IMG/VR virus record: IMGVR_UViG_2703718792_000016
Span: 1-21,466 of that record
From: a virus
Lineage: Duplodnaviria; Heunggongvirae; Uroviricota; Caudoviricetes
DNA length: 21,466 nucleotides
Reading direction: 5' to 3' (one strand)
The translations under genes and the position numbers were made by a program. The notes beneath the pieces are model-generated. The model saw only the letters and a program-made list of their open reading frames with translations, searched no databases and had not been told where the DNA came from. This document shows, piece by piece, positions 1-10,023 of the stretch; within the stretch, counting starts at the first letter, position 1; each line of letters starts with the position of its first letter.

Positions 1-567
1 TATCGCGTCCTCAACAATGAATTTTGTGATGCGGTGCCTGGTGCCTCCAGGTGACGTTAACCAGTTAACAATTAACGCCGGATACAGAGAATCCACCCAT
101 AACACTGTTTTTGGTTTTAACTGTTCCGCGTGCGCTGAGCCGCATTCACCGCATCACAAAATTCACTTTAAAAAGGGCGGCAGAGCAGTCACGGAGTAGA
201 ACTGATACCGCCAAAAGTCACCAGAAAATTGATAACAGAGGGCGTTGTAGCGGGGTTGTCACTTAAGTGTATGGTCAACCTGACAACCCGGTGTCCTCAA
301 CGGGGAAGGAATAACCCCGCCATACTTACCGCCGCGCCATTTCGCGGAGTGCCACAACCGGAAGCGCACGGTCGACGAAAATTTAACGACAGGCTATCTA
401 TGAACCAGCTACCTCGCCGTGCGCTTTCGCGTTATGGTCTGACTTTTCAGGGAAATATCCTTTCAGTAAACTGTCAGTGCCGGATGCTCACCCGTGTCCG
501 GCGCACGTACTCCACCTTACCCGTGGAGAACTCCTTAATTACCAACCTTAGCTTCGTTGGTTAGCTA

Positions 568-4611: not shown

Positions 4612-5118
4612 TTATTTCTTTGCAGCCAGAATCAGGCCGTCAAGCCACTCCTGGTGACCATTGAGCATTGGGTTCGGACGAGTATTTGCCAGGTCTTTTG
4701 CTGGAACTCCGTTCTGCGTTTCCTGTGTCAGGATACGGAGTCTGTTACCCGAGAGTTCCTCCAGTAGCCACGCATGATGAACATCTAGGCGTTGTACAGT
4801 ATCTTTTTCACCGGACCATCCGTGCCATGCCAAACGAGCAGGTTTACCTTCAGTAGGTGGAATAAATTCCACGACCTGAGCTTCAACCGGAAATCCAAAT
4901 GTGCTGAAGTAAAAGCGCACGCCATTTTCCAGCTCCGGACCTTTATTGTTATAAAAGCGCACATCTGCTGAATTTTTATAGTATTCCGGCCATAGTAATG
5001 GCTGACTAAGGAGTGGCCAAACATCATTGATGTTCAGACCGGAGATGATCATTTCATTAGACACAAAGTTATCAGTAAATCCCGGAACAAAGCCTTCTGG
5101 CCAGTGAATAGCGTTCAT
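4612..5118 (-). CDS. SRPBCC (Bet v1-like / polyketide cyclase-like) superfamily protein, cargo gene
   Basis: 168 aa from the ATG at 5118 (GGAGG upstream); the track ORF start at 5130 is a TTG extension. Superfamily call from overall sequence character, not a search. Confidence 0.6.
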   Translation of the reverse strand: MNAIHWPEGFVPGFTDNFVSNEMIISGLNINDVWPLLSQPLLWPEYYKNSADVRFYNNKGPELENGVRFYFSTFGFPVEAQVVEFIPPTEGKPARLAWHGWSGEKDTVQRLDVHHAWLLEELSGNRLRILTQETQNGVPAKDLANTRPNPMLNGHQEWLDGLILAAKK

Positions 5119-5253
5119 AAATGCCTCCAATTGCGGTAGTTAATTGTACTGGGTTTGCTGCGTTACGACCGCAACACGATGGCAGTGATTATTAGCGCAA
5201 TGAAGTTATAAGGCGAATTATGATTACTTATAATCTTAATAAGATAAATTATA

Positions 5254-6162
5254 TCAGGAGCCAGTATCTTGGCTAACTTCTACGCATAAAGCCCGAATCC
5301 ACTGATGGCTAGGGTCACGATGAGTTCGTTCATGCCAGGCCATACTCTTGGTAAAGCCCGGAACTTTCAGGGGCAAAGGGAGTATGATTAGATCGTTGTT
5401 AGTCAGGACCATGCGGTGGGGGACAACAGCGATCATATCAGTCACTTGCAATATATCAGGAACTACTTGAAAACTATTAACTGACATGCCTACTCGTCGT
5501 GTCAGACTGAGCTTAGCCAGTGCTTCATCTGTAACACCGGAGAAGCTACCTTCTGAAGACACCAGAATATGTTCCTGTTTGCAAAATTGTTCGAGAGTCA
5601 TTTCTGAATTCGCTGACAACGGATGATTCCGTCGTGCTATGCAAACATAATCTTCTTCATAAAGTGCTCTGCCGTGCAGCTCTCCGGGAGTGGTTTGTGG
5701 TGTTACCAAAGCCAGATCAACTTCTCCCTGAGATAACTGCTGATATATTCGTTTATTGTCTACAGGCCGCACAGAGATTTTAATATTCGGTGCTCGATGT
5801 TTCAGCGCAGCCATCAATGGGACAACAACAGCCTTAACTGCATAGTCCGTTGCGACAATGGTATAAGTTAGTTCTGCCGTCATGGGGTCAAATTTACTTG
5901 GTTTCAGCAGAATCGTGATATCGGTGAGAATTTGTTTTACCGGCATAGCAAGTTCTTTAGCACGGAGTGTGGGAACCATACCGTGACTGGTGCGAACAAA
6001 GAGAGGATCGCAAAAATAATCACGTAATCGAATAAGCATGCCACTGACAGCGGGCTGCGTCAGGGAAAGTCGCTGCGCAGCCCGAGTCACGCTTCCCTCA
6101 TCCATTAACGCATCAAAGGTCTTAAGTAAGTTAAGGTCGAGGGTTTTGATATCATTTTTCAT
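5254..6162 (-). CDS. LysR-family transcriptional regulator
   Basis: 302 aa; N-terminal HTH signature (...LNLLKTFDALMDEGSVTRAAQRLSLTQPAVSGMLIRLRD...) and a C-terminal substrate-binding-type domain of typical length. Confidence 0.9.
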   Translation of the reverse strand: MKNDIKTLDLNLLKTFDALMDEGSVTRAAQRLSLTQPAVSGMLIRLRDYFCDPLFVRTSHGMVPTLRAKELAMPVKQILTDITILLKPSKFDPMTAELTYTIVATDYAVKAVVVPLMAALKHRAPNIKISVRPVDNKRIYQQLSQGEVDLALVTPQTTPGELHGRALYEEDYVCIARRNHPLSANSEMTLEQFCKQEHILVSSEGSFSGVTDEALAKLSLTRRVGMSVNSFQVVPDILQVTDMIAVVPHRMVLTNNDLIILPLPLKVPGFTKSMAWHERTHRDPSHQWIRALCVEVSQDTGS

Positions 6163-6493
6163 AATGAGGTCACCTGACAGATATAAAAATGTTGATTGAG
6201 GCTAATTGCCCCGATGAAGGTTGTCGAGGGGAACCAGGAGTTTTTTCTTTTGGGTGATTTCCATTGCTGGATAGTTCCCTTGTACAGATAAGTCCGTTCT
6301 TCGCACAAAGCGGACTGGAAGGTTAGCTTGAGTCGGACTTTGCGTATTAAAAGAAGTGCTGGTGGTGACTGGTTCTTTAGCCCCATTTCCCCAGAAAAAA
6401 TCAGAGAAACTATACCCAATAGTTGTATTGATTCACTGACGAGACGGCCTCATATTGATAGGGACTAGTGTGCATCCAATACAGGAGGTTGTT

Positions 6494-6583
6494 GTGCTGG
6501 TTCTCAAATGTGCGCTGGCTATTGCGGCTGTAATGGCAATTTATTGTCTTGCTGTTGTTCTTATGGATCGCCTTTCTGATTGA
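6494..6583 (+). CDS. small hydrophobic peptide (29 aa, VLVLKCALAIAAVMAIYCLAVVLMDRLSD), possible membrane peptide or type I toxin-like
   Basis: Not in the ORF track; GTG start with AGGAGG 6 nt upstream; one predicted transmembrane helix with a charged C-terminus; divergent from the LysR gene. Confidence 0.35.
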   Translation: MLVLKCALAIAAVMAIYCLAVVLMDRLSD

Positions 6584-6737
6584 TTTCATATTGGCGAGGT
6601 AACGGTAGTTAAGTAGAATTGCTGCGGGTGCTTGAGGCTATCTGCCTCGGGCATGAACACCAACGGCAGATAGAGAAAAGCCCCAGTTAACATTACGCGT
6701 CCTGCAAGACGTTTAACATTAATCTGAGGCCATATCT

Positions 6738-6797
6738 ATGCGACACATAGAGATTAGCCTCTTACGGACCGAAAGGTCAAGGAGAAGCAGGCTATGA
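6738..6797 (+). CDS. mok-like leader ORF overlapping the hok start
   Basis: 19-codon ORF whose stop overlaps the hok ATG (ATGA), the kind of coupling seen in hok/mok loci. Speculative. Confidence 0.25.
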   Translation: MRHIEISLLRTERSRRSRL

Positions 6798-6949
6798 AGC
6801 AGCAAAAGGCGATGTTAATCGCCCTGATCGTCATCTGTTTAACCGTCATAGTGACGGCACTGGTAACGAGGAAAGACCTCTGCGAGGTACGAATCCGAAC
6901 CGGCCAGACGGAGGTCGCTGTCTTCACAGCTTACGAACCTGAGGAGTAA
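6794..6949 (+). CDS. hokD: Hok/Gef-family type I toxin (HokD/RelF-like)
   Basis: 51 aa MKQQKAMLIALIVICLTVIVTALVTRKDLCEVRIRTGQTEVAVFTAYEPEE; aligns with R1 Hok ([20 protein letters not shown]) and matches my recollection of E. coli RelF/HokD; GGAG Shine-Dalgarno upstream. Confidence 0.85.
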   Translation: MKQQKAMLIALIVICLTVIVTALVTRKDLCEVRIRTGQTEVAVFTAYEPEE

Positions 6950-6987
6950 GAGACCAGGCGAGGGAGAAATCCCTCGCCACCTCTGAT

Positions 6988-7395
6988 GTGTCAGGCATCC
7001 TCAACGCACCCGCACGTAACCCGCTTCGGCGGGTTTTGTTTTTTCCTGGCATTCTGGTTTACAATTCGCACGCCAGCCTGAACAACTGGCACCTGCTGCG
7101 CCAGCAGAGACAACCGATGGCGCGCGATACCAAATTACACAATTCTAATGATTCTGCCGTCTTTGCCAGTAGGTGCGGACGGCGTTTTCACGCATTCAAA
7201 TCAGACTGGTTCCAGCATCCTCCATGCACTGAAGAGCAGGCGGAATGGATAATTCAGTGTTACCGCAGGCGCGGATACGAGGTTAAGAAAGCTCTTAGCC
7301 TCGACTACCGTCACTGGATAATCTCAGTCAGACTCCCTTACTCCGAACGCCCACCGCGTTCATCCCGCACATTCCAGCAACGCATCTGGAGGTAA
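6988..7395 (+). CDS. hypothetical protein in the nin-like region (possibly Rem-like); start uncertain (GTG 6988 or ATG 7117)
   Basis: ORF ends 1 nt before the DUF968 gene start; preceded by a stem-loop (6959-6976) after hok. A 92-aa product from 7117 is equally possible. Confidence 0.45.
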   Translation: MSGILNAPARNPLRRVLFFPGILVYNSHASLNNWHLLRQQRQPMARDTKLHNSNDSAVFASRCGRRFHAFKSDWFQHPPCTEEQAEWIIQCYRRRGYEVKKALSLDYRHWIISVRLPYSERPPRSSRTFQQRIWR

Positions 7396-9713: not shown

Positions 9714-9789
9714 GGCCCTTTAGCTCAGTGGTGAGAGCGAGCGACTCATAATCGCCAGGTCGCTGGTTCAAATCCAGCAAGGGCCACCA
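9714..9789 (+). tRNA. tRNA with CAT anticodon, most similar to tRNA-Ile2 (lysidine, ileX/ileZ-like); Met not excluded
   Basis: 76 nt; cloverleaf with 7-bp acceptor stem GGCCCTT/AAGGGCC, anticodon loop CTCATAA, T-loop TTCAAAT, CCA encoded; close to my recollection of E. coli ileX. Confidence 0.85.
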
Positions 9790-9790
9790 A

Positions 9791-9867
9791 CCGCCACTAG
9801 CTCATCAGGAAAGAGCGTCAACCCTTTAAGTTGAGTGTGCGAGGTTCGAGTCCCCGGTGGCGGTCCA
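9791..9867 (+). tRNA. tRNA-like gene with non-canonical anticodon loop CCTTTAA (formal anticodon TTT, Lys); isotype uncertain
   Basis: 77 nt; acceptor stem CCGCCAC/GTGGCGG, T-loop TTCGAGT, CCA encoded, but C at position 33 and an A-C mismatch in the T-stem. Confidence 0.55.
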
Positions 9868-9869
9868 GT

Positions 9870-9945
<76 letters not shown>

Positions 9946-9948
9946 TAT

Positions 9949-10023
<75 letters not shown>

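Follow-up and report, generated by a model that had tools for sequence, protein, structure and literature searches.

A predicted hok/mok/sok toxin-antitoxin module of the hokD/hokW subfamily in a Qin-like lambdoid prophage of Escherichia coli

The closest studied relative of the element described here is hokW-sokW of Sp5, the prophage of Stx2 phage VT2-Sakai (Takada et al. 2021, PMC8621323). HokW is toxic, sokW counteracts it with a partial dependence on RNase III and Hfq, and the pair is a type I toxin-antitoxin (TA) system; mitomycin C eliminates sokW and increases HokW in a way that depends on RecA, and deletion of the locus halves the release of Sp5 phage (PMC8621323). HokW has 44% protein identity to Hok of plasmid R1 (PMC8621323). 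Fold-back pairing between the tac and fbi elements is a defining feature of hok messenger RNAs (mRNAs), and saturation mutagenesis of R1 hok has shown that translation of the leader reading frame, mok, is needed only as far as the hok Shine-Dalgarno (SD) sequence and start codon, stops past the hok start being harmless (PMC9841398). A further relative, hokD (relF) of E. coli K-12, is described in one paper as lacking the canonical TA components owing to rearrangement (PMC12214031, citing Pedersen and Gerdes 1999); its product is toxic when expressed (bioRxiv 10.1101/2025.08.07.668861). We report here on a locus of the same kind in a stretch of 21,466 nucleotides (nt) of viral DNA, IMG/VR record IMGVR_UViG_2703718792_000016, positions 1 to 21,466. 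The whole stretch is referred to as the window, and all coordinates are its own.

A preliminary description made from the sequence alone had placed at 6420-6990 a HokD/RelF-type type I toxin locus without the relBE genes. Comparisons with Pfam and Rfam, tblastn searches and RNA folding bear out that description, and we regard it as very likely that it represents a complete type I TA module, hok/mok/sok, of the hokD/hokW subfamily. The full module spans about 6591 to 7045 and forms a self-contained cassette, for which a promoter and a terminator of its own are predicted. The E. coli prophage that carries it is lambdoid and Qin-like, and the module lies in the early-right (nin/Q-proximal) region.

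The toxin gene itself is the open reading frame (ORF) at 6794-6949 (+), preceded by an SD sequence, AGGAGA, at 6780-6785 (+). Its product of 51 amino acids (aa), MKQQKAMLIALIVICLTVIVTALVTRKDLCEVRIRTGQTEVAVFTAYEPEE, had been called a Hok/Gef-family toxin; it scores 82.9 bits (cut-off 22) with the Pfam HOK_GEF model (PF01848), matches PHROG 251 ("MokW-like host killing") with E = 2.8e-33, and is 100% identical to the K-12 HokD protein. The lack of a relBE-sized ORF upstream also holds. No tblastn match to K-12 RelB or RelE was found across the whole window, and no ORF longer than 59 aa occurs within 6420-6793. Related loci were collected from IMG/VR, where 95 unique hokD-type loci comprise 93 with a leader and two that resemble K-12; the hok ORF is interrupted in just one of the 93. 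Codon 47 of the window gene (6932-6935, +) reads TAC followed by G, UACG in the transcript. In K-12, the hokD mRNA is reported to undergo low-level A-to-I editing that converts a C-terminal Tyr to Cys (PMC12214031; bioRxiv 10.1101/2025.08.07.668861).

Transcription of the toxin gene is predicted to begin from a promoter at 6591-6619 (+), composed of a -35 hexamer TTGGCG (6591-6596), a 17-nt spacer and a -10 hexamer TAGAAT (6614-6619). This is the sole sigma-70-like site listed by a generic scan of 6300-7150, and an alignment shows the same -10 hexamer and next bases for Sp5 hokW and phage Rac. The predicted start, about position 6626 and 7 nt downstream of the promoter, coincides with the start of the Rfam model discussed below. 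The predicted full-length mRNA of about 420 nt, 6626-7045 (+), runs from promoter to terminator, its 5' end placed to within 3 nt and its 3' end falling in a T-run. Because the promoter lies at 6591-6619, the stretch 6420-6590 is outside the hok transcription unit. The span first noted stops short of fbi and the terminator, and at its left end takes in about 170 nt of sequence that does not belong to hok.

The leader is 168 nt long. Rfam covariance model RF01794 matches it at 6626-6796 (+) over the full length of the model, scoring 101.3 bits against a gathering threshold of 59 (E = 2.7e-22), and the match ends at the hok AUG. The family is named "sok antitoxin" but the match is to the sense strand. 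Because it falls on that strand and ends at the hok AUG, RF01794 is in practice a model of the hok mRNA leader, and a hit to it is no proof of a Sok gene on the plus strand; automated annotation by RF01794 would put "sok" on the wrong strand.

The minimum free energy (MFE) fold of 6626-7045 has a value of -174.9 kcal/mol (z = -8.8 versus shuffled sequences) and pairs the 5' end of the RNA with the 3' untranslated region (UTR). At the very 5' end lies tac, GGGUGCUUGAGG, at 6626-6637 (+), which in the full-length fold pairs with its complement fbi, CCUCAA-C-GCACCC, at 6999-7011 (+), beginning 49 nt past the stop codon. The duplex comprises 12 bp with one bulge and is worth -21.5 kcal/mol. The inverted-repeat listing also gives this pairing, through repeats I3 and I5, with extended arms at 6623-6644 and 6992-7014. 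Fold-back structures like those of hok mRNA, as proposed in the preliminary description, are therefore present, and these arms are the real long-range pairing. The 9-nt repeats that had been named for that role, CTATCTGCC at 6638-6646 and GGCAGATAG at 6665-6673, are exact and unique in the window, but they form a local hairpin with an 18-nt loop. The tac sequence is kept in R1-type hok, hokB, hokC and hokE. Both hokC and hokB have tac and fbi at the same offset (48 nt), with compensatory changes in hokB, where GGGUGCCUGAGA pairs with UCUCA-U-GGCACCC; the equivalent in R1-type hok is GGCGCUU with AAGCGCC.

Between tac and the toxin gene, the leader is organized into a series of further elements. 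The 9-nt arms just mentioned belong to leader hairpin I, 6636-6675 (+), and in the inverted-repeat listing they are the central part of a hairpin that extends over 6627-6646 paired with 6665-6684. Among 72 unique leaders the pair 6640:6671 covaries, as A-T in 51, G-C in 12 and T-A in three, and the pair 6646:6665 also has compensatory changes. Next comes the ucb or anti-SD element, AAGCCCC, at 6678-6684 (+), which by analogy with R1, from which these roles are assigned (PMC9841398), would pair with tac in an open form of the mRNA or with the mok SD in a closed form. The tac/ucb stem of the Rfam structure, 6626-6633 (GGG-GCUU) with 6678-6684 (AAGC-CCC), is kept in 70-72 of the 72 leaders, and in the full-length MFE fold the CCC of ucb is paired with GAGG of the mok SD (6726-6729). 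When the Rfam structure was laid on a plain MAFFT alignment several pairs seemed unpaired, and only clearly covarying pairs were used; the apparently unpaired columns likely reflect mis-register in the alignment together with model columns that are non-canonical in this subfamily. Leader hairpin II, 6685-6725 (+), whose complement is the predicted terminator hairpin of Sok, contains 16 inserted nt when aligned by cmscan to the Rfam consensus. The inserted part (6695-6714, +) carries an extra CGUC/GACG stem that is common to Sp5 and Rac, and it is missing from a subgroup of six unique loci whose leaders are 22 nt shorter (tac at -147).

Downstream of the stop codon, a hairpin at 6957-6978 (+), GGCGAGGGA-GAAA-TCCCTCGCC, has a perfect 9-bp stem and a 4-nt loop; the stem-loop first placed at 6959-6976 is this structure. 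It was rejected as a terminator because no T-run follows it. The intrinsic terminator of the hok mRNA is predicted at 7018-7045 (+), where the terminator scan gives a hairpin (7018-7035) followed by a T-run, and it is the last segment common to the window and K-12 hokD. The 3'-UTR hairpin is expected to lie near the 3' end of the processed mRNA. It is kept, with compensatory changes, in Sp5 and Rac, and R1-type hok has a comparable G+C-rich hairpin in the same place; in R1 the truncated hok mRNA is destabilized by mutations in its last stem-loop (PMC9841398). A perfect 8-nt complementarity also links the hok -35 region, TGGCGAGG (6592-6599), to the 3' arm of the 3'-UTR hairpin, CCTCGCCA (6972-6979). 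This is probably a chance match, since transcription is predicted to start only downstream of its 5' arm.

The short leader ORF that had been seen to overlap the hok ATG is real. It is a mok-like frame, MRHIEISLLRTERSRRSRL, at 6738-6797 (+), which begins 8 nt downstream of an SD sequence, GAGGC (6726-6730, +), that is invariant in comparison with R1-type hok. Its ATG at 6738 aligns with the mok starts of R1-type hok, Sp5 mokW and phage Rac mok. The frame comprises 19 codons, lies out of frame (-1) relative to hok, and continues across the hok SD as far as the hok start codon, where its UGA (6795-6797) overlaps the AUG as AUGA. In R1, likewise, exactly 19 mok codons precede hok. Because the window mok would be translated up to the hok SD and start, its 19 codons satisfy what the R1 mutagenesis found necessary, and mok probably couples hok translation by termination and reinitiation at the AUGA. 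A hairpin at the start of mok, 6732-6754 (+), found both as inverted repeat I7 and as a helix of the Rfam model, is the putative equivalent of sokT, the Sok target region.

The reading frame of mok varies freely among near-identical hokD/hokW loci. An interval of 57 nt from the mok ATG to the hok ATG is seen in 81 of the 93 unique leader-bearing loci; 80 of these encode an in-frame "MokW" of 70 aa and one encodes 56 aa. Translation from the mok ATG in this majority form would give an N-terminally extended Hok. Nine loci have the interval of 56 nt found in the window, with 19 codons and an AUGA stop, and the remaining three have 58 nt and a classical overlapping mok of 68 aa, as in phage Rac. 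Since three frames coexist among close relatives, neither the Mok peptide nor its frame appears to be constrained.

The existence of a Sok antisense RNA was not evident from the first inspection, which proposed a search of the minus strand for its promoter. A promoter for it is predicted at 6751-6780 (-), with a -35 hexamer TTGACC at 6780-6775, an 18-nt spacer and a -10 hexamer TAATCT at 6756-6751. It was located by homology, not by the generic scan, and its position is homologous to that of the Sp5 sokW promoter, TTGCCT-17-TAACCT. The "promoter-less" sokW primers of Takada et al. change that -10 hexamer, and protection from HokW is then abolished (PMC8621323). When the window is aligned with R1-type IncFII hok, Sp5 hokW and Rac hok, the promoter block, TAGCCTCTTAC...CAAGGAGAAG, is the most conserved part of the leader.

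From this promoter, with a start about 7 nt past the -10 hexamer, we predict a Sok RNA of about 70 nt at 6674-6744 (-), both ends being predictions. Its fold (-26 kcal/mol, z = -4.2) has a single-stranded 5' tail, complementary to the mok-start region, then a long hairpin with a G+C-rich stem base followed by UUUUCUCU, which gives a U-rich 3' end. The predicted RNA occupies positions -50 to about -120 from the hok ATG, which may be compared with -44 to -103 for the annotated K-12 sokE and -48 to -104 for sokB, and probe YO-592, used for sokW, covers the homologous stretch. A length of about 70 nt rather than 57-64 nt is accounted for by the 16 nt that hairpin II has in addition to the Rfam consensus. 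Homology makes this RNA and its promoter well-supported candidates.

The mechanism proposed for the locus is modelled on R1 hok/sok and Sp5 hokW-sokW; the parts computed here are the tac/fbi complementarity and fold, and the sequence and homology of the Sok promoter. Transcription from 6591-6619 would yield a stable mRNA of about 420 nt in which tac pairs with fbi. This closure would lock the mok SD against ucb, so that neither mok nor hok is translated. Slow trimming from the 3' end would then remove fbi and let tac pair with ucb, exposing the mok SD and the Sok target hairpin. As long as the short-lived Sok RNA is supplied, it would pair with the mok start region, block mok translation and trigger cleavage by RNase III. 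Supply could stop when the element is lost or transcription is shut off, or upon prophage induction or phage attack. Ribosomes would then read the 19-codon mok through the hok SD and stop at the UGA on the hok AUG, leading to coupled translation of hok, and the 51-aa toxin would enter the inner membrane, collapse the membrane potential and kill or lyse the cell. By homology, the locus would be a working type I TA cassette. Likely pay-offs for the prophage are retention or abortive infection and, on induction, earlier lysis with release of more phage, the latter having been measured for hokW-sokW; prophage retention and abortive infection against other phages are equally possible roles.

The absence of relBE had been presented against the arrangement of K-12, where hokD follows relB and relE. 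The absence stands, but the implied oddity does not. At least 80% of 6585-7045 is present in 3928 of 5426 complete E. coli genomes, whereas the K-12 relE-hokD junction occurs in 1167 of the 5426. Because of these counts, the lack of relBE is the rule and not the exception, and the relBE-less state is evidently the common and ancestral one. Related leaders, when the paralogues hokA, hokB, hokC and hokE are included, occur in all 5426 genomes. The locus was also found in 110 phage records, among them Evi (96% identity), Tritos (94%), VT2-Sakai/Sp5 and many Stx2 phages (92.6%) and P1-like phages (89%), and it occurs on P1-like and other plasmids as well.

Several points weigh against a functional module. 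Transcription, processing, Sok expression and toxicity of this particular allele are predicted from its sequence and from homologues. Curated cut-offs of two NCBIfam Hok models are not reached (48.5 against 73 and 40.2 against 89). The generic sigma-70 scan did not list the Sok promoter, because its -10 hexamer TAATCT fits the consensus at three of six positions. When the RNA is truncated at its 3' end, it folds into a 5' hairpin of the metastable type and not into the tac/ucb stem, and the mok SD stays paired; refolding to the open form is for this reason not put forward as thermodynamically predicted. The mok allele of the window (nine of the 93 unique relatives) and its Sok promoter hexamers (11 of the 93) are both minority forms. 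Lastly, post-segregational killing was reportedly not seen with chromosomal hok loci in studies of the 1990s, whose authors suggested inactivity.

The alternative that survives best, although we think it rather unlikely, is that hok is expressed mainly from the early-right prophage transcript at induction, as an accessory lysis gene, with sok, tac and fbi secondary. The gene is co-directional with the downstream DUF968, rusA and Q genes, and in K-12 the expression of hokD comes solely from the relBE operon, of which it is the third gene and where it has no leader. The behavior of Sp5 also speaks for it, since RecA is required there for HokW to appear after mitomycin C and the phage yield drops by half when hokW-sokW is lost. 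The locus nevertheless has its own promoter and terminator, and conserved antisense and fold-back machinery would be pointless for a simple late gene. The proposal is in any case compatible with a hok/mok/sok module rather than opposed to it; read-through from the early-right transcript on induction could both supply more hok transcript and disturb the Sok promoter, which is convergent with it.

It is very unlikely, in our judgement, that the locus is an intact-looking but silent and decaying chromosomal copy, a passive passenger of the prophage whose toxin never reaches harmful levels. Such an account would draw on hokA of E. coli C, hokB of K-12 and hokC of ECOR24, which reportedly gave neither post-segregational killing nor a response to rifampicin, and on the minority frame of the window mok. 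All of the regulatory elements are present and complementary here, however, and the Hok protein is identical to one that is toxic. The rarity of interrupted hok ORFs (one of 93), together with compensatory changes in the leader, points to selection on leader RNA structure, and hokW-sokW, a close relative, is functional in the prophage to which it belongs. In R1, moreover, a single chromosomal copy of hok is lethal without Sok (PMC9841398).

The least probable alternative, that the 56-nt mok-hok interval is a frameshift from the 57-nt form of 81 of the 93 relatives (only nine having 56 nt), leaving hok permanently untranslatable and sok an orphan antisense, we give hardly any credence: R1 mok frames stopped past the hok start leave hok translation unimpaired (PMC9841398), the window mok runs through the hok SD to a UGA on the AUG in the classic geometry for termination-reinitiation, three mok frames (56, 57 and 58 nt) exist among close relatives, and the 56-nt allele occurs in several distinct sequences (nine), the more consensus-like Sok -35 TTGACC being similarly frequent (11), with the two features counted separately.

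In the prophage, the order of genes is DicF, immunity and replication functions, two cargo genes, the hok locus, DUF968/rusA/Q, four tRNA genes, and lysis and terminase genes. The DicF small RNA gene lies at 175-226 (-), with 71.5 bits. The tRNA genes, at 9714-10020 (+) downstream of the Q antiterminator gene, are Ile, Lys, Thr and Gly according to the annotation of a near-identical strain. The chromosome of E. coli ChlosBP-23-1 contains a near-identical stretch (99.6%), in which the sole annotation under the hok locus is "hokD". The two cargo genes, a polyketide-cyclase-like gene at 4612-5130 (-) and a gene for a LysR-family regulator at 5254-6162 (-), run opposite to the early-right direction and together (4612-6162, -) lie directly upstream of the hok block. 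Elsewhere the hok block sits behind other cargo, namely S1 peptidase, DUF2326 or DUF977 genes. On the other side, between hok and the DUF968 gene, a 92-aa ORF at 7117-7395 (+) belongs to PHROG 1212 (unknown function) and had no Pfam or NCBIfam match. It occupies the slot of rem in K-12, and in some genomes (L137, L138) a homologous ORF of 279 nt stands alongside rem or another ORF.

Immediately upstream of the cassette, a small hydrophobic ORF of 29 codons, MLVLKCALAIAAVMAIYCLAVVLMDRLSD, is found at 6494-6583 (+), with a GTG start and a strong SD sequence, AGGAGG, at 6484-6489; only 8 nt separate its stop codon from the hok -35 hexamer. The region is present in 1958 of the 5426 E. coli genomes, about a third, and carries no PGAP annotation in the records sampled; "putative membrane protein" and "hypothetical protein" are the labels given to the ORF in a few records. 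Three genomes were sampled for its position, and in each of them it lies about 205 nt upstream of hokD, while the genes further upstream differ. The upstream block is common to about 20 of 120 IMG/VR loci, at about 90% identity. Among 15 alleles, 13 variable sites are at third codon positions, five at first and five at second positions, and amino-acid changes are conservative; a divergent allele starts with ATG and has lost 3 nt in frame. Searches of Pfam, NCBIfam and PHROG found no family match, and an identification with K-12 YnfS, also 29 aa, was rejected because the sequences are unrelated. The ORF probably encodes a real small membrane protein. That this protein acts in concert with hok/sok, for instance as an additional toxin, as a modulator or as an immunity factor, is a speculative idea that we consider improbable; if true, the ORF and hok/sok would make a three-gene module missed by annotation.

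Set against the known systems, the locus is closest to hokW-sokW, with 92.6% nt identity over 415 nt. The 5' 50 nt of the mRNA are the same, the first 50 nt of primer YO-351 being window 6624-6673; tac and fbi are the same, the Sok promoters are homologous, and both loci reside in lambdoid prophages. Both Hok proteins have 51 aa and differ at five C-terminal residues. In contrast, MokW has 70 aa in frame with hokW (57 nt), whereas the window mok has 19 codons and is out of frame; the sokW promoter is TTGCCT-17-TAACCT, against TTGACC-18-TAATCT in the window. Sp5 diverges past fbi and is without the terminator sequence of 7018-7045, and its locus lies near the ea/int end rather than upstream of DUF968-rusA-Q.

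The R1/IncF hok/mok/sok system (parB) has the same architecture of promoter, leader (168 nt, of equal length), tac and fbi, and 3' hairpin. As in the window, its mok ATG is 19 codons before hok, and the invariant block contains the Sok promoter and hok SD. The same Rfam and Pfam families recognize both, although nucleotide identity of R1-type hok to the window is patchy. R1 mok, of 70 aa, overlaps nearly all of hok, and hairpin II is 16 nt longer in the window; the R1 system is plasmid-borne, and its role is post-segregational killing. Among the chromosomal loci hokC (gef), hokB and hokE, with sokC, sokB and sokE, the leader of hokC is about 71% identical to that of the window, and the annotated Sok RNAs stand at the equivalent position. 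These loci occupy fixed sites of the core genome and are often disrupted by insertion sequences in K-12, whereas the window locus is prophage-borne and intact. In K-12, hokA could not be used for leader comparison, its leader being interrupted by IS150, and hokE lacks the fbi region, with IS186 inserted 19 nt past the stop codon.

K-12 hokD, the third gene of the relBEF operon in the Qin prophage, is near-identical to the window only from 6780 to about 7044. It keeps the hok SD, coding sequence, 3' hairpin, fbi and terminator and occupies the same backbone slot, upstream of DUF968 (ydfU) and Q genes, but it has no hok promoter, tac, ucb, mok or sok, and relB-relE stand in their place. Identity starts exactly at 6780, the first base of the hok SD; upstream of that point, 14 nt before the hok ATG, the window is unrelated to the K-12 relE-hokD-rem region. 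Judged from this junction, K-12 relBE-hokD is a derived, 5'-truncated form, in which recombination 14 nt upstream of the hok ATG would have swapped out the promoter, leader, mok and sok. The window locus is an ordinary copy of a well-described element, and it carries little weight as a discovery; coupling of the 19-codon mok allele by strict termination-reinitiation at AUGA may be a lesser novelty. Its value is to correct the perspective on K-12, where the textbook reference, relBE-hokD, is a rearranged minority form, while the window holds the intact ancestral cassette with all of its RNA control elements.

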